Below are positions 15,907 to 44,855 of a stretch of 64,000 bases of DNA, one piece after another. Source of the DNA: Elusimicrobiota bacterium (GTDB lineage: Bacteria > Elusimicrobiota > Elusimicrobia > UBA1565); assembly GCA_043827405.1 (NCBI GenBank), contig JBDRPD010000083.1, positions 141,166 to 205,165 on the forward strand. Reading direction: 5' to 3'. The notes beneath the pieces were generated by a model. That model saw nothing but the letters and a program-made list of their open reading frames with translations, did no database searches and had not been told where the DNA came from. Both the position numbers and the translations under genes were made by a program. The stretch's first letter is position 1; the number at the start of each line of letters is the position of its first letter.

Positions 15907-17072
15907 CCGCGGGGCGCCGTCCCGTGGTCGAGTTCCCCCGGTTGTACCGCCCCACCTGGGCCGAGGTCGACCTCGGCGTCATTCTGGCCAATCTGAGAAA
16001 GCTGAAGCGCCGCGTCCGCGGCGCCGAGCTGCTGCTGGTGGTCAAAGCGAACGGCTACGGGCATGGAGCGGTGGAGGTCGCGCGCGCGGCGGAACAAGCC
16101 GGGCTGGTTCGCGGCTTCGGGGTGTCGTCGGTGGAGGAGGGTATCGCCCTGCGCGAGGCCGGCATCCGGCGCTCCATTCTGATCCTTGGCTCGCTCTATC
16201 CATTCGAGAGCACCATGGCGGCGATCCGTTACGGCCTGACGCCCACGGTCGCGTCGCTTGAAGGCGCGCGCCTGATCGAGCAGGCGGCGGAATCGATGGA
16301 GCGTCTGCATGCGGACGGGACCCAGGCCCTGCCGTTGAGCTGTCACTTGAAGATCGATACCGGTATGAGCCGGGTCGGCGTGCGTTGGCCCGCGGGCCGC
16401 GAGGTCGTCGATTACCTGGAGCGCGCTCCCGGCGTGCGGCTGGAGGGGGTGTTTACGCATTTGGCCTGCGCCGAGAACGACGTCCCGGCGACCCGCCGAC
16501 AGCTCCGGCAGTTCCGGGCGGCGGTGCGGGAGATCGAGCGGCGGGGACGAAAGATTCCCTGCCGGCATGCCGCGAACTCCGCGGCGGCGATGCGCTTTCC
16601 GGAGAGCCGCTGGGATATGATCCGGCCGGGGCTGGCCGCTTACGGTTTGTATCCCGGCTTCGCGCCGGCGCTTAGCCTGAAAACGCGGATCGTCTTCCTA
16701 AAAAGCGTTCCGCGGGCGACGCCCGTCAGCTACGGTGCGTTGTACCGGACCAGGCGCAAATCCCGGATCGCGACTTTGCCCATCGGCTACGGCGACGGAC
16801 TGCCGCGGCTGATCTCGCTGGCGCGGCGCGGCCGGCCCGGCGTGCTGCTGAAAGGAAGACGCTGCCCGATCGTGGGCGCCATCACCATGGATATGACCAT
16901 GGTCGATGTTTCCGGCGTTCCGGACGCCGCGGTGGGTGATGAGATCGTTCTGATCGGACGTCAGGGCCGCGCGATGGTGTCCGCCGGCGACTTGGCGCAG
17001 GCCGCTCAAACCATTCCCTACGAGATTGTTACCGGCCTGCAGCCCCGGCTCCCTCGGATATATATCCGTTAG
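15903..17072 (+). CDS. alr: Alanine racemase
   Basis: PLP-lysine motif VVKANGYGHG plus the conserved C-terminal beta-domain. GTG start overlapping the dnaB stop by 4 nt. Confidence 0.9.
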   Translation: MTAGRRPVVEFPRLYRPTWAEVDLGVILANLRKLKRRVRGAELLLVVKANGYGHGAVEVARAAEQAGLVRGFGVSSVEEGIALREAGIRRSILILGSLYPFESTMAAIRYGLTPTVASLEGARLIEQAAESMERLHADGTQALPLSCHLKIDTGMSRVGVRWPAGREVVDYLERAPGVRLEGVFTHLACAENDVPATRRQLRQFRAAVREIERRGRKIPCRHAANSAAAMRFPESRWDMIRPGLAAYGLYPGFAPALSLKTRIVFLKSVPRATPVSYGALYRTRRKSRIATLPIGYGDGLPRLISLARRGRPGVLLKGRRCPIVGAITMDMTMVDVSGVPDAAVGDEIVLIGRQGRAMVSAGDLAQAAQTIPYEIVTGLQPRLPRIYIR

Positions 17073-31486: not shown

Positions 31487-32748
31487 CGCGGGTTCCCGCC
31501 TTGCTGTTGCTGCTGCTGCCCCATGACCTGATTGAGCATTTCCATGCTTTGACCGAGCATTTCGTTGACGCCGCGCGTGGCTTCGATCATCTCCTTAACG
31601 GTGCCGGCGCGGTCCGCCTTGGGGATATTGGGCAGGGTCTCGACCAATGACTGGCGGATGGGCCCGCTCATTTTCGGCCACTCCTTCACCAGCAGGCTGC
31701 TGGTGCGGCTGTCGAGGAGCAGCAGGGTTTCGTTGGGAGGATGCTGCATTTTCTGGTAGCGCTGCATCTCCTGGATGACGCCCATGGGATTGGTCTGCGC
31801 CTGGTGCATCGCCTGCTGGAAGTCGTTGTTGGCCTGCTCGTCGCCCAGCGCCTGCATCATGGCCGAGGCCGCCTGGATGGCCTGCTGGGGGTTCATCGGC
31901 TGCTGCTGTTGCTGCGTTCCGATGACGGCGGGCGGCCCGCCGAAGGAGGAGCTCTGCTGTGTTGAGATCTGTCCCTGGAAGTTGCCGAGCGACGACTTGA
32001 GGCGCTGGGCGGCTATGGCCGCCGAGATGCTGAGCAGCAGCCAGAAGACCGTTAAGGCGCCGAAGACCAGCCAGGCCTTCTTCTTGTCGACCCGGTGCAG
32101 GCCCGCCGCCGCATGAACGGCAAGGTAGAGCCCGCATAGCTGGGGGATGATCGCTCCGGCATAGGGGATGAGGCCCAGAAGAGAACTAATAGGCATCAGC
32201 GCCGCCATGGCGGCGAAGGCGCCGAAGCTGCCGTTGTAGGAGACGCCGCCGCCGAGGACTTTGCACAGGACGTGGAAGATCGCGGCGCCGATGAAGCTCA
32301 TGATGATCGCCACGATCGGCAGCATGAACAGCCCGCCGGTGGCGGCAGCGATCGTGAAGGGGACCGACTGGGTCTTGGCGTAAACCGTGAAGGCGGACAG
32401 CGGGGCGCTGATCAGCGCCCACAGGATGATGACGACCAGCGGCGGGCCGAAGCCGCCGTTGGGGTTGATGCGGGAAAAGAAAAGCGTGGGCTGCTGGGCC
32501 ATGAATACGGCATTGGCGATCAGCTTGCCGGGCTTGAAATCGATAAACCCGCCGACATCGGCTTCCCGGCCGGGGCCGATGGGCGCCGCGGCGGGCGGCG
32601 GCGGGACGTTTTGTGCCATGACGGCCCGGACCGCTTCCTCGATAGCTTCGGGGGGAAAGCCGTTGCCGGCCAGCGCCGTCTTGAGGCTTTCGATGGGGTA
32701 GCTGCCCATGTTCTGGCGCAGATAGTCGACGATTCTCTGGTCGGGCAT
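31483..32748 (-). CDS. Yip1-domain multi-pass membrane protein with a Gln-rich C-terminal extension
   Basis: Five-TM Yip1-like core (LVVIILWALISAPLSAF...LPIVAIIMSFIGAAIFHVL...). Tail rich in Q (TQQQQQPMNPQQ...QQQQQQGGNPR). The ATG at 32748 is preferred over the TTG at 32784. 4-nt overlap with the downstream gene. Confidence 0.65.
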   Translation of the reverse strand: MPDQRIVDYLRQNMGSYPIESLKTALAGNGFPPEAIEEAVRAVMAQNVPPPPAAAPIGPGREADVGGFIDFKPGKLIANAVFMAQQPTLFFSRINPNGGFGPPLVVIILWALISAPLSAFTVYAKTQSVPFTIAAATGGLFMLPIVAIIMSFIGAAIFHVLCKVLGGGVSYNGSFGAFAAMAALMPISSLLGLIPYAGAIIPQLCGLYLAVHAAAGLHRVDKKKAWLVFGALTVFWLLLSISAAIAAQRLKSSLGNFQGQISTQQSSSFGGPPAVIGTQQQQQPMNPQQAIQAASAMMQALGDEQANNDFQQAMHQAQTNPMGVIQEMQRYQKMQHPPNETLLLLDSRTSSLLVKEWPKMSGPIRQSLVETLPNIPKADRAGTVKEMIEATRGVNEMLGQSMEMLNQVMGQQQQQQGGNPR

Positions 32749-34753: not shown

Positions 34754-35639
34754 CCGTCATCGCCAGCTTGAATATCTCGGTCACGTCGCTGGAGAAGGCG
34801 AATTCGAACCGCGGATCCAGCACATAGGCCTTGATTTTCAGCGTCGTGCGCAGCTGCTTTTCCGACGGCGCATCCTGGAACAGCACGACGATCGGCTTGG
34901 CGAGATTTATGTAGCGGGAGGTGACAGCCGCCTCCCATGCGGTGCGTTTCGCCGCGAGCAGGTCGGTTTCCGGCGGCAGCGTGATTTCCGTGACGACCTG
35001 GCAGGTCAGTGCTCCGGAATTGGCGTTCGCTATGATGCGGTTGACGATCTCCGCGTTGGGGACCGTAACCAGATTGTCGTCCGATGTGACGAGCCGCACG
35101 GTGCGCAGCCCAATGCCGACGACCTCGCCGTAGTGTTCTCCGATGCGGATCTTGTCGCCGACCTGGAATGGACGATCCAGGATAATGACCAGCCCGCCGA
35201 AGATATTCTTTAAGATGTCCTGGGAGGCAAAACCGATGGCGACTCCGGAAGCGGTTAGTACGGCGAAAAACGCGTCCCTGGTCGGAGAGAATACCCAGCG
35301 GACGATGATATAGGCGGTGCCCGCCCATACCAGTACGCGGATGATCGGAATGCCCTTTTTGAGGAAGCGGTAGCGCGCGCTGCGTTCCCCGATAAGGTCG
35401 AGCAGGTAAGTGCTGGTTAAGATGGCCAGCCAGGCGAGTGCGAACAAGAGCGCCGCGATGAGGATCTTTAGGGAAAGCCTTGACGCGCCGCGGCGGACCT
35501 CGCCCAGTTTCTGCTGCCCCGTGACCGGCGTCGAAGCGGCCTCCGTCGTCGGCACGGAGACGGCGGCGTGAGATGTCGCGACGGCCGCGAAAGCGGTGGG
35601 GACCAGAAGGACGATAATGAGCGGCAGCGCTTTATGCAT
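34740..35639 (-). CDS. Small-conductance mechanosensitive channel (MscS family)
   Basis: Signal or TM start MHKALPLIIVLLVPTAFA. MscS core (GFASQDILKNIFGGLVIILDRPFQVGDKIRIGEHYGEVVGIGLRTVRL). The 3' end is convergent with and overlaps gsp by 14 nt. Confidence 0.88.
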   Translation of the reverse strand: MHKALPLIIVLLVPTAFAAVATSHAAVSVPTTEAASTPVTGQQKLGEVRRGASRLSLKILIAALLFALAWLAILTSTYLLDLIGERSARYRFLKKGIPIIRVLVWAGTAYIIVRWVFSPTRDAFFAVLTASGVAIGFASQDILKNIFGGLVIILDRPFQVGDKIRIGEHYGEVVGIGLRTVRLVTSDDNLVTVPNAEIVNRIIANANSGALTCQVVTEITLPPETDLLAAKRTAWEAAVTSRYINLAKPIVVLFQDAPSEKQLRTTLKIKAYVLDPRFEFAFSSDVTEIFKLAMTAKTP

Positions 35640-38091
35640 GGATGAAGTTTTTGTCCCGGAGCGCTTCCAGCACCGGGCCCAGCAGGATGGGATTGGGCGC
35701 ATACCGCGGTTCGGCGCCTTCCTCGCGGCGGCACGACAAAATCCGCCGGTGCGTCAGGTAGTCCAGCAAGGTCCGGCTCTCGGTGAGGGGCGAGCGCAGC
35801 AGCTGTGAGAGGAGCGGTGCGGTGAGGTGGTCGTGCTCGAGCGTGTAGAGCATCCCGAACAGCTCGCTCAGGGTGAGGTCGCCCAGAATTTCCTTACGGA
35901 AGGGCGAGAGCGGCGCGACGTGGACTTTCCGCCGGCCCTCGCTCTGGGTTGAGCGCAGCCAATAGTACAGAGCGGCGTGCAGGTTGCGTCCGGCGGCGGC
36001 ATGCAGAGTATCGAAGAACTCCTCGCACAGGATCGCCTGGCGCTTCTCCCGGTCTTTAGCCTGGCGCAGCTTCCACCGGATATCGGCCGACAGGCTGGGG
36101 CCCTCAGTGAACTCTAGATCGTAGCCGCTGACCTCGTGACGAGCCATGAGCGCGGATTCGAGTTCCGTCCGGTCGAGGCCTCGGAGCATGATGCACGAGT
36201 CGAAGCGTTTAAAGATATCAAAGGTCCGGTCCAGGTAATCCCATCCGGCCTGTGAAAAAGTGATGATCCAACACGCCTTTCCCTCGGTGTTGGAGAGCAG
36301 TGAGAAAAGGGAGCGTACAGCGTCGAAGCCGCCGACGCGCCGGAGGTGGAGCATGCTTCCGCCCTCGATGACGAACACCGGCCTGTCGGGCAAGGCGCGA
36401 ATCGCGGAGACGAGGTTCGGGAGGGCATTCTCCCGGACCGGGGTGCTCCATCCGATGGATGTCGAGATGAGCTCGACAAAATCGGACTCGGAGCTTAGAT
36501 GTTTTTGGAGCTGTATCCACGCCGGCTTTTGGTCGGGGAAGTGTCTTTGCAGTGCGCAGCGGGTGAAGCTGGTCTTGCCCAGCCCCACCGGGCCGATGAC
36601 GGCGACGGCCGCCGACAGGCCGGAGTTGAACCGCTGGCGGATGGCCCGCATGGCGGGCATGAATTTCTCGCATCCGGTCAGGAAATCCTCGTCGGTTAGG
36701 GGCTCGAAGCGGAACAGGCGGCGGTAGAGGAGCGGGGTATTCTTGAGCGCGAACTCAATGGTCGCCTCCTCCAGAGTCGCTTGGGAGAGTTCGATCTGCG
36801 GCTTCTTGATGCCCAGGGCGGTTTGCAGGCCGGCAAAGGCTTCCCGCCCGCGGGCACGCAAGGCCTCTGTCCAGGAACGGGTGGAGTGGAGTTTGCGTTG
36901 GCCCCGTTCTTCGAACAGACGCCAGGTCGACAGAAGCGATGCGGTCGCGACCGCCACCCGTTCGCCGAACGTATCGGCGACGTCACAATCGCGACGAAGC
37001 TGCTTGCCTGCCCGCTCGACCGCCGTCGACACGGCGGCGGCGAAAGCCGTGGTGAGAGTTTCTATTTCTTCGGGCAGCTTCTCGATGCGGGCTCCGGTGC
37101 GGTCGATCCCGTCGAGCGCGAGCTGGAGGGCTTCGCCCGGCGGTTCCGCGGCGGTTCCCTCGTCGCCGTCAAGCAACGCTCCCGCGGAGTGCAGATTAAA
37201 TCTGGCGATCTTGGCGCTCTCCCGCATCTGGGTGGAGGACTCCGCATAATCCCGGTCCAGCGTTTCAGCGGGTGGGCGAAGATCATCGATCATGTCCTCC
37301 AGCAGGATGCGGACCACGATGGAGCGCAGCGGAATGCGGCGCACTCTTCCCTGGGCTCTGGCTTTGCCGGTCAAGCTGGTCAGAAACAGCGTCAACCGGC
37401 GCTGCAGCTTGAACGCACGCACGAACAGGGTGTCTCCCGGTTCGGCGCCGAGCTGTTCCTTTGTCTGACGAACCCGGTATTCGAGAGGAACGCTTTGCGC
37501 AAGCTTGAGGAGCTCTGCGCGCAGGTGTCGAACCGCGGATAGGCCCAAAGGCGCCGCAGCGGCGGTGTGGCGATGTTCGGATGCCGCGCTGAGTAGGAGG
37601 TGCCCTATCATGCGGGCTTCGCTTTCCAGGAGTTCAATTTGGGCGGATGATTCCTTATCCCGGAAGGCCTTTTTTAACCGGTCGGCGGAAAGCCGGCACT
37701 CTTCGAGAATCGAGCGGGAGACCTGCTGCGCCCGCGCACCCGCTTGTTCCGTCGCTTTAGCTGAGACGGCGGCGGCGGCTCGGGCGAGGTCATCAAGGAC
37801 CAAAGAGACGCTTTCTTCGAGGTGCTGGGATTGGTCGTCAGCGTCGGCGCCGGGTATCTCGGGGGGGAAGGCTGTGACCCAGAACTGGCGCAGTTGGTTC
37901 CAGAGGGCCCGCCGCACGACCAGGGCGAGGCGGGTCACACGGTCGAGCAACCAATAGGCGAGAAGCGCTCCTACCGCGAGCGCCGCGAGCTTGGCGCCAT
38001 ACGCATAGTCTCCCAGTACGGGTAGGGGTTGGTCGAGCCAAGCCAGCAGCGCGTGCCAGGAAAGATGCAGCGGTCGCAGATGCGTCATCAC
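35632..38091 (-). CDS. Large (819 aa) protein: N-terminal TM helix, long helical region, C-terminal P-loop AAA+/STAND-like ATPase
   Basis: TM LAALAVGALLAYWLL. Walker A VIGPVGLGKTS. Walker-B-like RPVFVIEGG. Sensor-1-like CWIITFSQ. Stop overlaps the MscS ATG by 8 nt. Confidence 0.7.
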   Translation of the reverse strand: MMTHLRPLHLSWHALLAWLDQPLPVLGDYAYGAKLAALAVGALLAYWLLDRVTRLALVVRRALWNQLRQFWVTAFPPEIPGADADDQSQHLEESVSLVLDDLARAAAAVSAKATEQAGARAQQVSRSILEECRLSADRLKKAFRDKESSAQIELLESEARMIGHLLLSAASEHRHTAAAAPLGLSAVRHLRAELLKLAQSVPLEYRVRQTKEQLGAEPGDTLFVRAFKLQRRLTLFLTSLTGKARAQGRVRRIPLRSIVVRILLEDMIDDLRPPAETLDRDYAESSTQMRESAKIARFNLHSAGALLDGDEGTAAEPPGEALQLALDGIDRTGARIEKLPEEIETLTTAFAAAVSTAVERAGKQLRRDCDVADTFGERVAVATASLLSTWRLFEERGQRKLHSTRSWTEALRARGREAFAGLQTALGIKKPQIELSQATLEEATIEFALKNTPLLYRRLFRFEPLTDEDFLTGCEKFMPAMRAIRQRFNSGLSAAVAVIGPVGLGKTSFTRCALQRHFPDQKPAWIQLQKHLSSESDFVELISTSIGWSTPVRENALPNLVSAIRALPDRPVFVIEGGSMLHLRRVGGFDAVRSLFSLLSNTEGKACWIITFSQAGWDYLDRTFDIFKRFDSCIMLRGLDRTELESALMARHEVSGYDLEFTEGPSLSADIRWKLRQAKDREKRQAILCEEFFDTLHAAAGRNLHAALYYWLRSTQSEGRRKVHVAPLSPFRKEILGDLTLSELFGMLYTLEHDHLTAPLLSQLLRSPLTESRTLLDYLTHRRILSCRREEGAEPRYAPNPILLGPVLEALRDKNFIHA

Positions 38092-38207
38092 CTGAGGCTA
38101 GCAAAGAAATCGGCACGAAGAACAGAGGACGATTCAAGTATCTTTTCCTCCGTCAGGGATATATACTTTTCGGGAAAAGAGACGCTTATTCCGCTGGATA
38201 ATATGAC

Positions 38208-39737
38208 ATGACCAAGCAGCCATTGGCCGGGCTCCATCGCCCGGTCTCCCCCGACGCTCTGACCTGCGCCGGCTTGGCGACCGGTTTCACGCTGCTGTAT
38301 TTAAGCTTCTTAAGCCGGTATTACGTCTTCGAGGGCTTGGCGCGCGCTATGCCGATCGAGGCCGGCCGGTTCCGGGAGCTCTTCAACGCCAACCATATGC
38401 TCTACGGCACCGTGGGCTGGTGCTTCCACGGCCTGCTCAAGATGCTGGGCGTCGTCCAGCTGTCGGTCCATTCACTGCAGCAGTTGGATGCGCTTCTCGG
38501 CGCCGCGGGCGTCGGGCTGTTTTTTCTGACTTTGCGCCGGCTGGATGCGCCGCGCATCACCGCCGCTTTGTGGGCCGCGGCGCTGGGCTTCTTTCTCGGC
38601 TATTGGCTCTGGAGCATCGATGCCGAAAATTACATCTTTTCCACTTTTCTCCTGCAGCTCAACTTCTTCGCTCTGGTCCGTTATACGCGGCAAAGAAAGG
38701 GGCATCCCGTCCTGCTGGGCGCCCTGCATGCCCTGGCCGTCATGGGACATATCGTCAATGGCGTTTTCGGCGTGGTCGTTTTATGGGTCATCTATCGCAC
38801 CCACCGGCGCAACTGGCTGCGGCCGGCACTCCTCTATGTCGCCGCGGTAGCCGTTCTCACCTTGGGCGCCTATGCCTTGACGCTGGCGGTGATCGTTCGT
38901 CCGCAAACCATGGACGAGGCGAGGCGTTGGTTTATGGGCAGTGCGGGGAGAACCGATGGGGCATGGAATTGGCGCGGCGGCTATGGCTGGACCAAGCTGG
39001 GGCAATGGCTGACGTCGTCGCTCAATGTCATCTGCTCTTTCAAGAGCGGCTATCAGAACCCGCCTCCCTGGCCGCTGGCCGGTCTCTGGCAATGGATCGC
39101 GCGGCTGATGCTCGCCGGTTTCGCCGCCGCCGCTCTATGGAACCGCCGCCGGATATGGCGCGAGAGCGGAACCGAGCTGGGAGCCTGCCTGCTGTGGGTG
39201 GGGGCCTATGCCTGTGTATTCCTCTCCTGGGAACCGCATATGCTGATGTATCACGTCACCAATACGGTCCCGTTCTGCGTCATCCTCTACCTTTCGTCGC
39301 GGGCGATGCGCCTGCCGGCGCCGCGGCAGTACGCGGCCGCCGGCGTCTTTACCCTTTCTTTAGGCTTAGCCAACTTTTCGGCCGAGGTCCTGCCGCGATC
39401 TTATCGGGAGAACAACCCCGCTCTCATGGCTATGGATTTTATCCGGAACCATACCGAGGACCGGGCCTGGATCGCGACCGACCTCGACCTGGATCAGCTC
39501 TATATCCCCTTCTTCGCCCGGCGGCGGCCGCTGCTTCTCGGCCGTTACGGGGGGAGCTCCGGGCATGAGCGGCTCTCAGGCGAACTGGACCGGCTGCTGC
39601 AGGACGGCCAACGGCTCTACCTGACGTCGAATGTGCTCGCTATTGAGGAGTGGCGCCGGTACTTCGGCGGCGCTCAGCTTGAGGTCGCGGCGCGTTATGA
39701 GGACGGTTTTACGCTCTACCGCCTGCGTGGCAGGTAA
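38208..39737 (+). CDS. Polytopic membrane protein, probable GT-C-fold glycosyltransferase
   Basis: About 11 predicted TM helices with a C-terminal soluble domain. No precise family assignable from sequence alone. Confidence 0.6.
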   Translation: MTKQPLAGLHRPVSPDALTCAGLATGFTLLYLSFLSRYYVFEGLARAMPIEAGRFRELFNANHMLYGTVGWCFHGLLKMLGVVQLSVHSLQQLDALLGAAGVGLFFLTLRRLDAPRITAALWAAALGFFLGYWLWSIDAENYIFSTFLLQLNFFALVRYTRQRKGHPVLLGALHALAVMGHIVNGVFGVVVLWVIYRTHRRNWLRPALLYVAAVAVLTLGAYALTLAVIVRPQTMDEARRWFMGSAGRTDGAWNWRGGYGWTKLGQWLTSSLNVICSFKSGYQNPPPWPLAGLWQWIARLMLAGFAAAALWNRRRIWRESGTELGACLLWVGAYACVFLSWEPHMLMYHVTNTVPFCVILYLSSRAMRLPAPRQYAAAGVFTLSLGLANFSAEVLPRSYRENNPALMAMDFIRNHTEDRAWIATDLDLDQLYIPFFARRRPLLLGRYGGSSGHERLSGELDRLLQDGQRLYLTSNVLAIEEWRRYFGGAQLEVAARYEDGFTLYRLRGR

Positions 39738-39762
39738 GGGTATTGACGACTTGATAAATTAA

Positions 39763-39780
39763 TGGTATATTATAATATAC
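39763..39780. promoter_or_regulatory. 18-bp perfect AT-rich palindrome (GGTATATTATAATATACC), candidate operator/promoter of the HTH-NTase module
   Basis: Self-complementary sequence contains TATAAT. Sits in an AT-rich island immediately upstream of the ATG at 39789. Confidence 0.55.
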
Positions 39781-39788
39781 CACAAATT

Positions 39789-40352
39789 ATGCTTGAATTT
39801 AAACAAATAACCAGCCTAAGGAAGAAGAACGAGGTGTCAGAGCGAGGGCTCGCGCGTATAGTCGGCATGAGCCGGATAACGGTCCGAAAATTCGTATCGG
39901 GAGATGGGAATCCCACCCTGCGTACGGTCGAGAAGTTGGCGAAGGGATTCGGGCGCAAGGCGTGCGTCCTCTTGGAGCCGGATGCCGATTGCTGGGCGGA
40001 AATGTCTACGGTAGCCGTTTCGATGCGGACCGCCGCCGGCGAGGATTGGAAGATCGCTTTTTTCGATCTTGTCGACGCCTTGCGCAGTACGCTGGACTAC
40101 CGTCTCGTCCTGCTGCCGCCGGTGCGGAAATTGGCGGACCGTCCGCGGGCGCTGCTGGCGTCCATGGTGTGCGAGCTTTGTCATGAATGCGGATTCACGC
40201 CTCCTTCCTGGGCGGACCGGACATATTTTTTGGACCAGCCATGGTTCGTCGCGGGGATGCGATCGTTAAAGGCTTGCGCAATTCAGGAATCGCCGCTGTG
40301 CTTCCGCCGGAATAATATATTCGTGCTGGCGAATTTCATGCACCGCGTTTAA
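39789..40352 (+). CDS. XRE-family HTH protein with a Cys-rich C-terminal domain (CELCHEC)
   Basis: Cro/C1-type HTH (ERGLARIVGMSRITVRKFVSGDGNPTLRTVEKLAKGFG). About 120-aa C-terminal domain of unknown fold containing a CxxCxxC motif. Confidence 0.65.
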   Translation: MLEFKQITSLRKKNEVSERGLARIVGMSRITVRKFVSGDGNPTLRTVEKLAKGFGRKACVLLEPDADCWAEMSTVAVSMRTAAGEDWKIAFFDLVDALRSTLDYRLVLLPPVRKLADRPRALLASMVCELCHECGFTPPSWADRTYFLDQPWFVAGMRSLKACAIQESPLCFRRNNIFVLANFMHRV

Positions 40353-40353
40353 T

Positions 40354-40881
40354 ATGCTGACGACGAAGGAAATCCGCTCTCTCTTCGCCGAGCTCAATGT
40401 CCGTCTGGCGGAGGCGGGTATGCGCGGGGAGATCGGTATCGTGGGCGGCGCCGCGATGTGCCTTGTCTACAACGCGCGCGAATCGACGCGGGATGTCGAC
40501 GCCGTGTTCGCTCCGGCGGGTGAAATCCGCGCTATGGCGGCCAGGATCGCGCAAGAGAAGGGGATCGGAAAAGACTGGCTCAACGATGCCGTCAAAGGAT
40601 ATATCGAAAAGGGATTCGAGCGCGAGATCGTGCTCCAGCTGTCGCATCTGCATGTCTGGACGCCCGAGCCGCGCTACCTGCTGGCGATGAAGTGCGTCAG
40701 CGCGCGTTTCGACTCGCATGACGGCGACGATATCCGTTTCTTGATCCGGCATCTTGGTTTACGGAAGATCGACCAGGTCTTGTCCGTCATCGAGAAATAC
40801 TATCCGCGGGATCGCGTGCCGGCGAAGACGAGCTTCTTCCTGGAAGAGGTGATTGAGGGATTGAATGACCGAAGCGAATAA
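40354..40881 (+). CDS. Pol-beta-superfamily nucleotidyltransferase-like protein (DUF6036-like minimal NTase)
   Basis: hGG-x13-DVD motif (IGIVGGAAMCLVYNARESTRDVDAVF) typical of minimal nucleotidyltransferases. 175 aa. Starts 2 nt after the HTH gene stop. Its 3' end overlaps the next gene by 17 nt. Confidence 0.65.
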   Translation: MLTTKEIRSLFAELNVRLAEAGMRGEIGIVGGAAMCLVYNARESTRDVDAVFAPAGEIRAMAARIAQEKGIGKDWLNDAVKGYIEKGFEREIVLQLSHLHVWTPEPRYLLAMKCVSARFDSHDGDDIRFLIRHLGLRKIDQVLSVIEKYYPRDRVPAKTSFFLEEVIEGLNDRSE

Positions 40882-42580
40882 ATCCCTTTACGCCGCGGTC
40901 CTCCTGATATTCCTTTCGGGGTTTTGCGCGATCCGGGCTGTGGACCGCCATTCCCTGACCTACGACGCCGTTAAATACCCCGCTTCGGGCTACGACTATC
41001 TGCGCACCCTGCGGCTGCGGACCGATCCCGAGAACCCGCCGGTCGGCAAGGTCCTGACCGCCCTGCCCTTCCTGATTATCGACGCCGACCCTCCCCAGCT
41101 GACCGACGGCTCCGATGAACGGGGCTTCGACACCGGCTGGCGCTTCTTCTTTCGCAACAAGGTTCCCGGCGATGTGCTCGCCTACTACGCCCGTCTGCCC
41201 GCGGTCGCCGCCGGGATGCTGCTGGCGCTGACGCTGTTTCTCTTCGCCCGGCGGCGCTTCAGCGGTTGGGGTTCGCTGGTCGCCTTGGTCTTTCTGCTCG
41301 CCGGGCCGATGTACCGGGCGCTGACGACTTTGGCGACGACCGACATCTTCCTGGCGCTGTTTTTTCTGTCGGCGGTCTATTGGCTCGACAGGGAGCTGGA
41401 GGGCGAGAGGCCCAATCAGCACTACCTAAGCGGAGCGGGGATCTTCGCGGCGGCGGCGGTGCTGACCAAATTCTCGGGCCTGCTGTTTTATCCATTGGCC
41501 GCCGCTGCCGTTCTGCGCCGGCGCCGGCTCATGCTGGGAATCCTGGATCTGATCGTCCTCGGCATGCCGCTGCTGATTCTCAGCACCATGCTCTACGGCT
41601 CCGATTTCGGCCGCTTGTGGGAGGGAGTGCTGTTTCAGAAGACGGTGCTCTCCCGGGGGCCGCACCTGACTTTCTTCTGGGATGTCTTGGAGAAGCGGGC
41701 CTGGCCGCAGTACTATTTGGTCTCGTTTTTCCTCAAGACGCCGTATCCCTTCCTGCTGGCGCTGGCCGCCGGCCTTTTCTTTTGGGTTCGCACCCCGGAA
41801 CGCCGCCAGATCGTCCTGGTGGCGGCGCCGTTTTTGCTCTTTCTGGCGGCGGCGAGCGGCAACCGCTTCTACGCCACGCGCTACCTGTTCCCCGTCTATC
41901 CTCTGCTGGCTTTGACCGCGGCGGCGGCCTGGGACTTCGGCCGCCGGCGCGGCAAGGTCCTGATCCTGATTTTGGCCGCCTGGCAGGTTGGGGAAGCAGC
42001 CTGGGCCTATCCGCATTACCTTTCCTACATGAACCTGCCGTGGCGGGCGCAGGGCCACCGCTACCTGGCCAACTCGGATTTCGACTGGGGCCAGGACTTG
42101 CCGGCGCTGGCTGATTTCCTGACGCTGGAGAGGCGGCCGCCGCTGCAGCTCTGCTACTTCGGCACCTCCGATCCCGAGGCTTGGGGCATCGAGGCGCAGC
42201 AGCTGGCAACGGTCTCCAAGTCCTATGTCTCGGACACGGTGCTGCCGTTGGCGCCGGAGCGGGAGCTCCTGGCGGTAAGCGCCGGCTGCCGGCAGTACAT
42301 GACCGTGCGCGCGGGTGCGGAGACGCTGCGCGCCTGGGCCTGGCTCGATAAGCGGCGGCCGATCAAGGTCGTGGCGGGCACTTTCTTCATCTATGATATC
42401 CGCGACGACGCCGAGGCGCATGGACGTATCGGCCAGCTGCATGCCGCGCAGGGCGACCTCCGCAAAGCCCTGCGCGAGGCCCAGCGGGTTCTCGAGATCG
42501 AACCCGGCAGCGCCGAGGGCAAGGCCTTCCTCTCCTTCGTGCGCGGGCGAATGGGCGGTGAGGCAGGTTTGATACAATGA
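40865..42580 (+). CDS. GT-C glycosyltransferase of the PMT/ArnT type (GT39/GT83-like) with C-terminal TPR motif
   Basis: N-terminal DxD-like loop after TM1. 11-13 TM helices with ArnT/PMT-like topology. C-terminal HGRIGQLHAAQGDLRKALREAQRVLEIEPGS TPR. Confidence 0.7.
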   Translation: MTEANKSLYAAVLLIFLSGFCAIRAVDRHSLTYDAVKYPASGYDYLRTLRLRTDPENPPVGKVLTALPFLIIDADPPQLTDGSDERGFDTGWRFFFRNKVPGDVLAYYARLPAVAAGMLLALTLFLFARRRFSGWGSLVALVFLLAGPMYRALTTLATTDIFLALFFLSAVYWLDRELEGERPNQHYLSGAGIFAAAAVLTKFSGLLFYPLAAAAVLRRRRLMLGILDLIVLGMPLLILSTMLYGSDFGRLWEGVLFQKTVLSRGPHLTFFWDVLEKRAWPQYYLVSFFLKTPYPFLLALAAGLFFWVRTPERRQIVLVAAPFLLFLAAASGNRFYATRYLFPVYPLLALTAAAAWDFGRRRGKVLILILAAWQVGEAAWAYPHYLSYMNLPWRAQGHRYLANSDFDWGQDLPALADFLTLERRPPLQLCYFGTSDPEAWGIEAQQLATVSKSYVSDTVLPLAPERELLAVSAGCRQYMTVRAGAETLRAWAWLDKRRPIKVVAGTFFIYDIRDDAEAHGRIGQLHAAQGDLRKALREAQRVLEIEPGSAEGKAFLSFVRGRMGGEAGLIQ

Positions 42581-44025
42581 GTGTCATGCCGAAGCTGCGA
42601 TTTTTTAATACGCTGACGCGTTCCGTTGAAGATTTCACGCCGGCGCGTGAAGACGGGATCGTCCGCCTCTACACCTGCGGACCGACCGTCTACGACTACC
42701 TGCATGTCGGCAACTACCGGACCTATATTTTTGAAGATGTCCTCAAGCGGACGCTCAAGCTCTTCGGCCTTCCGGTGCGCCACGTCATGAACATTACCGA
42801 CGTCGGACATCTGACCAGCGACGCGGACGAGGGCGAGGACAAGCTCGAGCTCGGCGCCAAGCGCGAAGGCAAGACCGCCTGGGATATCGCCCGCTTCTAT
42901 GAGCAGACCTTTATCGAGGACATTAAGAAGCTCAATATCGACTTCGCTCCCGAGCCGGACCCGGCGCGGGAGGATGCCCCGCGCGCGGCCGATATCCTGT
43001 GCCGCGCCACCGACCATATCAACGAGCAGGCGGCCATGGTCGACCGGCTGGTGCTTAACCGCTTCACCTACGATACCGCGGACGGCATCTACTTCGACAC
43101 CTCCATGCTCCCGGACTACGGCAAGCTGGCGGGGGCGGCGCATATCGCGGGCCTGCAGGAGGGCGCGCGCGTCGCTATGGGAGAGAAGCGCAATTCGACC
43201 GACTTCGCGTTGTGGAAGTTCTCGCCCAAGGGCGAGCAGCGCCAGATGGAGTGGGAGTACCGCGGCCGCAAGGGCTTCCCCGGCTGGCATATCGAATGCT
43301 CGTCGATGGGGCAGACTTATCTGGGGGAGTCCTTCGACATCCACTGCGGCGGGGTCGACCATATCCCGATCCATCACACCAACGAGATCGCCCAGGCCGA
43401 GGCGGCGACTGGCAAGCCCTTTGTCCGCTGCTGGATGCATGCCGAGTTCCTGATAATGAACAAGGCCAAGATGGCCAAGTCGGCCGGCGGCTTTATCAAG
43501 CTCGCCGATCTCGAAGAGAAGCGCATCGACCCGCTCGACTACCGCTACTTCTGCTTCGGCGCCCACTACCGCAAGCAGCTGGAGTTCTCCTGGGAAGGCC
43601 TGCAGGCGGCGCGTACCGCGCGCCGGCGGCTGCGCGACCGGGTGCGGGGCTGGCTCGCCGAGTCCGCGGCGGGCGTGGAGAGCGCGGCGGTGGCCCAGGC
43701 GCGGCGGGACTTCTCCGCGACGCTGGCCGACGATCTGAACGTGCCCGAGGCGCTGGCCTGCGTATACGGCGTGCTCGATAATCTCGGCAGTGCGGGTGAG
43801 CGCATCGCTTTCCTGCGGGAAGCCGAGAAGGTCCTCGCTTTGGGGCTGTTTGCCGCTGCTAAAGAAGAATGCCTGCCGGGCGACGTGCAGCGGGCATTCG
43901 AGGACTACGTCGCCGCCCGCCGTGATAAGAACTTCGCGGTTTCCGACGCCCTGCGCTCCAAGCTTAAGGACTGCGGGATTCAGGTACTGGATTCCAAGGA
44001 TGGTTCCAGCTGGAGGCGTTTATGA
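42577..44025 (+). CDS. cysS: Cysteinyl-tRNA synthetase
   Basis: HIGH motif (YLHVGNYRTY). KMSKS variant (KMAKSAGG). Zinc-binding Cys and His, C-terminal DALR domain. Confidence 0.95.
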   Translation: MSVMPKLRFFNTLTRSVEDFTPAREDGIVRLYTCGPTVYDYLHVGNYRTYIFEDVLKRTLKLFGLPVRHVMNITDVGHLTSDADEGEDKLELGAKREGKTAWDIARFYEQTFIEDIKKLNIDFAPEPDPAREDAPRAADILCRATDHINEQAAMVDRLVLNRFTYDTADGIYFDTSMLPDYGKLAGAAHIAGLQEGARVAMGEKRNSTDFALWKFSPKGEQRQMEWEYRGRKGFPGWHIECSSMGQTYLGESFDIHCGGVDHIPIHHTNEIAQAEAATGKPFVRCWMHAEFLIMNKAKMAKSAGGFIKLADLEEKRIDPLDYRYFCFGAHYRKQLEFSWEGLQAARTARRRLRDRVRGWLAESAAGVESAAVAQARRDFSATLADDLNVPEALACVYGVLDNLGSAGERIAFLREAEKVLALGLFAAAKEECLPGDVQRAFEDYVAARRDKNFAVSDALRSKLKDCGIQVLDSKDGSSWRRL

Positions 44026-44855
44026 GAAAGGAAAAACCTGGACGCCGCCGCTGGGCGGGCGACAAGGGGAGACCGGCGCGGCGGGGCAGGGCGGGCGACT
44101 TCGCGCGTCAGCTCAAGGAGGACGAGCGCTGGGTCTTCGGCCGGCATGTGGTCGAGGAGGTGATCGACTCGCGCCGGTGCCGGGTGCTGAGCCTGTGGGC
44201 GATCGACGGCGACAAGTACGCCGACCTTCTGCGCCGCGTCCGCAAGCGCGGCACCCGGGTCTCCGTCGTGCCGAAGAAGGAGCTCGACCGCATTACCAAC
44301 GGCGGGGCGCATCAGGGGCTGGCGGCCAAGATCGCCGACAAGCCCGGCGCCGCGCTGGAGGATTACCTGGAGGCGCTGTCGCCCGCCGAGAAGGCGAAAG
44401 CCGTCATCGTCGTCCTCGACCAGATACAGGACCCGCACAATTTCGGCGCCATTTCCCGCAGCGCGGTTTGTCTGGGCGCGAGCGCCTTGGTCTATCCGCA
44501 GCGGCGCAGCGCCCCGCTGACCCAGGCGGTGCATGCCGCGTCGGCCGGCGCCATATCCAAAATCAAGACCTTTTCCGTCGTGAACCTCGCCCAGACCTTG
44601 GAGCTGTTCAAGCGGGCGGAATTTTGGATCTACGGCGCGGATGTCGCCGGCCGGCCGCTGGCCGGGACGCGCTTTAACCGGCCGCTGGTGCTGGTGATCG
44701 GCTCCGAGGGCCAGGGCATCCGTCCGTTGGTGCGGCGCTGCTGCGACGAGCTGGTCTCCATCCCGCAGGCCGCGGGCGGCGTGCAGAGCCTCAACGCCTC
44801 CTGTGCGGCGAGCGTACTGCTTTACGAAGCCGCCCGCCAAGGGGCGAAGGGGTAG
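44022..44855 (+). CDS. rlmB: TrmH-family 23S rRNA 2'-O-methyltransferase (RlmB-like)
   Basis: SpoU substrate-binding N-domain and SPOUT methylase motifs (VVLDQIQDPHNFGAISRSA...LVIGSEGQGI...LNASCAASVLLYE). The N-terminal basic extension suggests the real start may be later. Confidence 0.85.
   Translation: MRKEKPGRRRWAGDKGRPARRGRAGDFARQLKEDERWVFGRHVVEEVIDSRRCRVLSLWAIDGDKYADLLRRVRKRGTRVSVVPKKELDRITNGGAHQGLAAKIADKPGAALEDYLEALSPAEKAKAVIVVLDQIQDPHNFGAISRSAVCLGASALVYPQRRSAPLTQAVHAASAGAISKIKTFSVVNLAQTLELFKRAEFWIYGADVAGRPLAGTRFNRPLVLVIGSEGQGIRPLVRRCCDELVSIPQAAGGVQSLNASCAASVLLYEAARQGAKG

Follow-up and report, generated by a model that had tools for sequence, protein, structure and literature searches.

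What is a pair of small genes, one for a DNA-binding protein and the other for a minimal nucleotidyltransferase (NTase), doing inside a tightly packed chain of bacterial genes? The pair lies in an Elusimicrobiota metagenome-assembled genome, on contig JBDRPD010000083.1, of which we analysed a stretch of 64,000 nucleotides (the window); identical proteins are found on a 276-kb contig. An earlier note, made from the letters of this DNA, had seen in the pair the architecture of a toxin-antitoxin or abortive-infection system, AbiE among others, and the two genes do form a real, conserved module with the hallmarks of toxin-antitoxin systems. We conclude that the locus is probably an autoregulated two-gene toxin-antitoxin module in which the NTase is the toxin, and that it most likely represents a branch, as yet undescribed, of a toxin-antitoxin class already known. 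We read it in this way because the two genes are tightly linked, because their order can be inverted and their DNA-binding domain swapped, because an operator sits at their promoter and because the pair is scattered without regard to context and carried on plasmids.

Does the pair stay together elsewhere? Scans of genomes and metagenomes gave 88 loci with an NTase homolog, and these we searched with a profile of residues 80-187 of the upstream protein, its C-terminal domain (CTD). A CTD is encoded directly beside the NTase gene, on the same strand, at 85 of the 88 loci, and at each of the other three fewer than 121 nt of contig remain upstream of the NTase; the pairing found in the window recurs in other genomes. 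What precedes the CTD is a different matter. Upstream of the NTase it is fused to an XRE-type helix-turn-helix (HTH) at 35 loci and to an RHH domain (NikA/TacA/ParD-like) at at least 16; it is joined to an AbrB/MazE domain at one locus and to DUF433 in one case, the latter in the representative library only; and it stands alone upstream of the NTase at 4-5 loci and downstream of it at 16. Judged from sequence, then, the constant part of the pair is the CTD, not the HTH. Among 1.84 billion representatives a profile search brought up 1,200 CTD proteins (clusters at 50% identity), in every one of which the CTD is C-terminal, and no NTase-CTD fusion was seen among them; three proteins with long CTD matches (P0242, P0249 and P0299) were examined as possible fusions and are not. 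The pairwise identities of NTase and CTD rise and fall together (r = 0.87; Mantel test, reached by 0 of 2,000 permutations), the NTase being the more conserved partner, at a mean of 50% against 40%. The AbrB/MazE-CTD protein (L004, positions 20-607) adjoins a ParE-type toxin-antitoxin pair on the opposite strand and has no NTase gene downstream; since its contig starts 19 nt upstream, it may be either an orphan antitoxin or part of a module in NTase-first order.

This variety of partners bears on a quite different idea, in which the NTase inactivates a compound, as the antibiotic-modifying ANT(2'') and Lnu(A) do, and the HTH-CTD protein is a ligand-sensing repressor. A repressor with its operator laid over the promoter is, to be sure, typical of inducible resistance genes. 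But at many loci the partner comes with no DNA-binding domain, or its gene follows that of the enzyme, so that the role of a sensor-repressor makes no sense, and the DNA-binding domain has been exchanged between four folds unrelated to one another, with the CTD unchanged. Moreover, the invariant T-R-D-x-D and K...D pattern of the enzyme, to which we come below, matches MenT toxins, and one plasmid copy sits within a cluster of toxin-antitoxin modules. We hold this to be a very improbable account, the least probable of those we weighed.

What sort of protein, then, is the constant partner? Its only Pfam matches are HTH_3, HTH_31 and HTH_26, a Cro/C1 HTH domain that places it in the XRE family; HTH_3 here and DUF6036 in the NTase (35.0 bits) bear out the domains read earlier by eye. 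Homologs of the HTH-CTD protein are 180-195 amino acids (aa) long, for which reason we favour the ATG at 39789 over the one at 39762 as its start. In an AlphaFold2 model (predicted local distance difference test score, pLDDT, 94.5) helices make up most of the CTD, along with a short beta-bridge. When the full-length model was put through fold searches, these matched the HTH alone and found no counterpart for the CTD, a CTD profile search of PDB sequences gave nothing relevant, and 27 CTD sequences had no match in Pfam at E <= 10, any AbiEi family included. The suggestion that the protein might be an undescribed variant has thus held up, for the CTD is without a match in Pfam, in solved structures or in the literature we searched. 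"Cys-rich" is a poor name for the family, however: the CxxCxxC that had given rise to it (C128, C131 and C134) is present in the window protein, and only C131, one cysteine of the three, is kept by relatives. What the family does conserve includes W87, D96, R99, ALLAS121-125, C131 and PWFV151-154, and further on K161, ESP167-169, NIFVL176-180 and R186, with VDxFR, ALLAS, LC, PxW, PWFV, LKA and ESPxxFRxxNIFVLxNFLxR as its strongest motifs.

Could the polarity be the reverse of the one that we propose? In HEPN-MNT systems (HepT/MntA, type VII), as here, there are two genes, for a minimal NTase and a small helical protein, and by analogy the NTase would be the antitoxin, which nucleotidylylates and so inactivates a toxic CTD protein. 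The 16 loci at which the NTase gene precedes a stand-alone CTD, a minority, have the gene order of mntA-hepT, and the conserved polar residues D96, R99, S125, K161, E167, S168, N176 and R186 are such as one would look for in an enzyme or in a target of modification. Against this, CTD alignments show no conserved His and therefore no Rx4-6H motif of the kind that marks a HEPN partner, and the 27 CTD sequences match neither HEPN nor DUF86 nor NTase_sub_bind in Pfam even at E <= 10. The NTase itself resembles MenT toxins rather than MntA, and it is on the helical partner that DNA-binding domains are found, with its gene in most cases the first of the operon, two traits of antitoxins. We therefore consider reversed polarity unlikely, and continue with the NTase as the putative toxin.

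The NTase belongs to Pfam family DUF6036 (PF19502), which it matches at 35.0 bits against a gathering cut-off of 23.6 (E = 1.5e-8), as do 49 of 49 aligned relatives; the identical protein bears the NCBI name "DUF6036 family nucleotidyltransferase." At 175 aa it is at the long end of a family that spans 168-175 aa. Its motif I had been given as GG-x13-DVD, and a recount makes the spacing GG-x14-DVD; the catalytic aspartates, on which an NTase assignment would stand or fall, are there in almost all of 201 distinct relatives (D47 in 200, D49 in 196). Every one of the 201 has G32, R42 and T45 in motif I and K113, R118, D123 and D126 further along, and G31, W75, N77 and D78 are kept by no fewer than 196 each. 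An AlphaFold2 model (pLDDT 94) shows four helices after an alpha/beta core, the same bi-lobed build, an NTase core with a helical bundle, that has been described for MenT1 (PMC10435456). In structure the protein is closest to the NTase toxins of the MenT/AbiEii type.

The likeness to MenAT of Mycobacterium tuberculosis (MenT1/MenA1 = Rv0078A/Rv0078B) may well extend to the active site. The loop T45-R46-D47-V48-D49 parallels T39-R40-D41-x-D43 of MenT1, phospho-acceptor Thr included, and a Lys and an Asp follow downstream in both, so that T45, D47, D49, K113 and D126 come in the same order as T39, D41xD43, K137 and D152, a putative equivalence drawn from sequence order. In MenT1, T39 is the site of an auto-phosphorylation induced by the antitoxin, for which D41 and K137 are required, and activity or auto-phosphorylation depends on T39, R40, D41xD43, K137 and D152 (PMC11375011). 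MenAT is also like the window pair in having the antitoxin gene directly upstream of the toxin gene, and like the family at large in attaching diverse, mutually unrelated antitoxins to one toxin fold. We could detect no sequence homology between the two, and the window NTase is a DUF6036 protein, not DUF1814/PF08843; the literature on MenT covers DUF1814, DUF2253 and DUF4849 and does not discuss DUF6036 (PMC11375011). The partner in the window is a new domain, unlike MenA1 (68 aa) and the COG5340 and COG4861 proteins, and it comes with an XRE HTH and an operator that overlaps the promoter, whereas MenAT1 is without transcriptional autoregulation (PMC11375011).

Several observations weigh against the view that the NTase is a toxin of this kind, and it is best to have them in one place. 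The protein does not match PF08843/AbiEii (DUF1814) at E <= 1, a single one of its 49 relatives matches the AbiEii/DUF1814 hidden Markov model (E = 0.008), and no PADLOC model recognises it. The correspondence of K113 and D126 with K137 and D152 of MenT1, and with K189 and D211 of MenT3, is drawn from their order along the chain. Many of the conserved residues of the CTD are polar, which is commoner in enzymes than in passive antitoxins. Among 124 neighbouring open reading frames (ORFs) scanned with Pfam there is no signal of a defence island, no phage-borne copy was found in IMG/VR or among the GenBank phages, and no paper came up when the full text of the literature was searched for DUF6036 and PF19502. 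As for other libraries, NCBIfam has no match to the NTase, PHROGs gave nothing informative, and a profile search of PDB sequences with the NTase found nothing relevant, neither MenT nor AbiEii.

An autoregulated module needs an operator, and there is a good candidate at the start of the HTH-CTD gene. The earlier note had picked out a perfect 18-bp palindrome with TATAAT inside it; perfect it is, with TATAAT where it was said to be, and only the length must be amended, since the 18-bp core GGTATATTATAATATACC is part of a perfect palindrome of 20 bp, TGGTATATTATAATATACCA, which continues imperfectly on both sides. The best sigma-70-like site in a scan of 5 kb (38000-43000) is TTGACG-17-TATATT, and its -10 element falls within TGGTATATTATAATATACCA, so that the palindrome overlaps the promoter of the gene, as an operator of an XRE antitoxin would. 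Between the palindrome and the start codon there are 6 nt, and a Shine-Dalgarno sequence is absent, from which we infer that the leader of the transcript is very short or absent.

How much should one make of a palindrome? By raw count alone it is weak evidence, hardly beyond chance: perfect palindromes of 18 bp number three in the window where simulation leads one to expect 0.78, and an AT-rich stretch favours them. (The other two, GCCGAGGTCGACCTCGGC and GGGCGCTGATCAGCGCCC, are GC-rich.) It is through its position and its conservation in relatives, as far as sequences can tell, that this palindrome is beyond chance. The pattern GGTA-N8-12-TACC occurs once in the whole window, and the homologous HTH-type genes have palindromes of two classes at their promoters. 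Class 1, TGGTA-N-TACCA with the -10 at its centre, is that of the window and also of L001, L002, L011, L019, L032, L037 and other loci; in class 2, TTGACa-N-tGTCA, the left arm doubles as the -35. Upstream of the homologous HTH-CTD genes, over 4,356 nt, there are 22 exact half-site pairs, and the rest of these loci, 183,216 nt, has 13, an enrichment of about 70-fold; such pairs are found at 21 of 37 distinct loci.

We can now propose how the module would work. Set free, the NTase would transfer nucleotides onto RNA and so block translation; we expect it to act like MenT and AbiEii because of its fold and its active-site pattern. Those enzymes add nucleotides to the 3' ends of tRNAs and thereby block aminoacylation (PMC7450476, PMC10435456), and tRNA 3' acceptor ends are, by that analogy, a target that we name tentatively, at somewhat less than an even bet. 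The CTD of the upstream protein would neutralise the NTase in one of two ways, through binding or through induced auto-phosphorylation of the enzyme at T45; the invariance of T45 is what suggests that the CTD may act in the second way, as reported for MenA1 and MenA3, and plain sequestration is equally possible. The XRE HTH, probably as a dimer, would bind TGGTATATTATAATATACCA, and since TGGTATATTATAATATACCA covers the -10 region, binding would repress the operon. Toxicity, target, mode of neutralisation and DNA binding are thus what the comparisons lead us to predict.

Of the systems with a DNA-binding antitoxin, AbiE (AbiEi/AbiEii, type IV) comes nearest to this plan: an antitoxin with a separate C-terminal domain for antitoxicity, a toxin of the same NTase superfold, and negative autoregulation through inverted repeats at the promoter, to which the operator in the window may be likened. 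Nonetheless, membership of AbiE at the level of sequence, where the earlier note had seen the architecture of AbiE, does not survive comparison. The window NTase matches neither AbiEii/DUF1814 nor the AbiE models of PADLOC, and the antitoxins differ in both halves, for AbiEi, MenA3 and MenA4 (COG5340) join an N-terminal winged HTH to an AbiEi-type C-terminal domain, whereas the window protein joins an XRE HTH to a CTD that is not of the AbiEi type. In further contrast to AbiE, we found neither evidence nor context of phage defence for the window family. The XRE antitoxins of type II systems (HigA, HipB and the Xre/MbcA/ParS proteins of RES systems), whose C-terminal domains bind the toxin, work through a palindromic operator at the promoter of their own genes, for which the window has a candidate; their toxins, however, are RES, HipA and HigB, where the cognate toxin here would be an NTase, and in sequence the CTD has no relation to DUF2384 or to any other Pfam family.

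Where does the pair occur, and did it arrive in the window as an insertion? Named hosts are Elusimicrobiota, Bdellovibrionota, Acidobacteriota, Pseudomonadota and Verrucomicrobia, and copies on plasmids are found in Mycobacterium, Rhodococcus, Tessaracoccus and Brevibacillus. The plasmid copies, at only 34-42% identity, keep the same pairing, and RefSeq labels them "hypothetical protein" followed by "DUF6036 family nucleotidyltransferase"; that of M. intracellulare has toxin-antitoxin modules of the RES-Xre and PIN kinds beside it, and recombinase genes adjoin other copies. The 124 neighbouring ORFs match 104 Pfam families, none of them present at more than three loci, and with neighbours so heterogeneous we reject both a defence island and a conserved third gene. 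On an evolutionary scale the cassette is mobile. An insertion at this very spot, which had been claimed earlier, found no support: there are no flanking direct repeats around the pair, and the closest relative of the downstream GT39-cysS arrangement (L093, 60% identity) is without the pair, but there the left flank is a different one throughout. The closest homologous pair, with 58% identity in the HTH protein and 59% in the NTase, belongs to relatives of Elusimicrobia CG1_02_63_36 (L006-L009), where its surroundings are not those of the window; in L006, L007 and L009, but not in L008, an rve-family transposase gene lies just downstream of it.

The neighbours in the window might be thought to tell another story, in which nothing is toxic and the NTase covalently modifies, or serves as co-factor to, an HTH-CTD transcription factor that controls the GT-C/GT39 glycosyltransferases of the envelope. 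The pair does lie inside a tightly packed chain of genes on the same strand, and the NTase gene overlaps the start of the GT39 gene by 17 nt, so that the two are probably co-transcribed. Yet the neighbours are different at every other locus, where none of the window's own neighbour genes recurs; the pair is missing upstream of orthologs of the GT39 protein (44-60% identity); the operator sits at the promoter of the pair itself; and stand-alone CTD forms cannot bind DNA at all. We find a regulatory pair of this sort highly improbable.

The layout of the locus, with the toxin-antitoxin module at its centre, is collected in Table 1; the coordinates and lengths of the two genes, the spacing of 1 nt between them and the 17-nt overlap are all as they had first been read. 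A gap of 51 nt, AT-rich, separates the stop codon of the upstream 509-aa membrane-protein gene from the start of the HTH-CTD gene, and the AT-rich island reported there is real, with a GC content that falls to 0.445 over 39700-39899, where the flanks have about 0.63; that of the gene pair, about 0.58, is somewhat lower than the figure of about 0.64 for its own flanks. The pair had been placed between two GT-C genes, which is right for the downstream one, clearly GT-C/PMT_2 in Pfam (E = 1.4e-12) and named GT39 by NCBI, and doubtful for the 509-aa protein, whose match to PMT_2 is below threshold (E = 0.0094; 16.6 bits against 26.1). Because stops and starts overlap along the chain that surrounds it, the pair is probably also read through from, and into, the adjoining genes. 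An Rfam scan of 38000-43000 found no RNA family. The 819-aa ORF that diverges from the 509-aa gene has a Walker-A-like motif and no Pfam family at E <= 0.1.

Table 1. Positions, in window coordinates, of the module and of the features around it
Feature	Position	Strand	Remarks
Sigma-70-like promoter: TTGACG, 17-nt spacer, TATATT, TG ahead of -10	39743..39771	+	10/12 consensus positions
Putative operator, perfect 20-bp palindrome TGGTATATTATAATATACCA	39763-39782	.	contains TATAAT at 39771-39776
18-bp core GGTATATTATAATATACC	39764-39781		
Palindrome with imperfect extension	39757-39788		
HTH-CTD gene (putative antitoxin and autorepressor)	39789-40352	+	564 bp, 187 aa
XRE/Cro-C1 helix-turn-helix domain, aa 9-57	39813..39959	+	Pfam HTH_3, E = 1.9e-8
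Conserved C-terminal domain (CTD), about aa 80-187	40026..40349	+	roughly 110 aa; invariant NTase partner
NTase gene (putative toxin), DUF6036 nucleotidyltransferase	40354-40881	+	528 bp, 175 aa
NTase motif I: G31 G32 ... R42 ... T45 R46 D47 V48 D49	40444..40500	+	GG-x14-DVD
NTase motif III/IV-like: K113 ... R118 ... D120, D123, D126	40690..40731	+	conservation in relatives
Overlap of NTase gene 3' end and GT39/PMT_2 gene start	40865-40881	+	17 nt
GT39/PMT_2 gene	40865-42580	+	
509-aa membrane-protein gene	38208-39737	+	stop codon 39735-39737
Same-strand gene chain	38208-44855	+	tightly packed, stops/starts overlapping
Overlap of GT39 and cysteinyl-tRNA-synthetase-like genes	42577-42580	+	4 nt
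Overlap of cysteinyl-tRNA-synthetase-like and SpoU/TrmH-like genes	44022-44025	+	4 nt
819-aa ORF	35632-38091	-	Walker-A-like GPVGLGKTS; divergent from gene at 38208
GC-rich perfect 18-bp palindrome GCCGAGGTCGACCTCGGC	15960-15977		
GC-rich perfect 18-bp palindrome GGGCGCTGATCAGCGCCC	32403-32420		

Why should one care about two small genes with uninformative names? NTase toxins such as AbiEii and MenT are a class that has only recently been understood, in which translation is blocked by extension of the acceptor ends of tRNA, and how they come to be controlled by such very different antitoxins is an open question. To this class the cassette would add a compact toxin family of about 170 aa, unrelated in sequence and with the same key active-site loop, together with a conserved partner domain that has no annotation in any library we searched. 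What is new here is most likely just that, a sequence-distinct minimal NTase toxin and a new antitoxin domain, the NTase-toxin kind of toxin-antitoxin system being already known. We would go one step further only as a doubtful suggestion, that the CTD might be a new and widespread class of antitoxin domain for MenT-like NTases, which acts catalytically or allosterically and not by mere sequestration of the toxin, for instance through auto-phosphorylation of T45. Were that true, the CTD would be a third independent solution beside MenA1 and AbiEi/MenA3, and the rule of antitoxin-induced auto-phosphorylation would reach beyond DUF1814 to an NTase family unrelated to it in sequence. Environmental bacteria carry the family in abundance, and so do actinobacterial plasmids, those of Mycobacterium intracellulare among them. 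If our reading of the module is confirmed, functional names could replace two "hypothetical" or DUF annotations, a small and well-defined pair of operator and repressor would be gained, and auto-phosphorylation of Thr or Ser as a general control of NTase toxins would have been put to the test.

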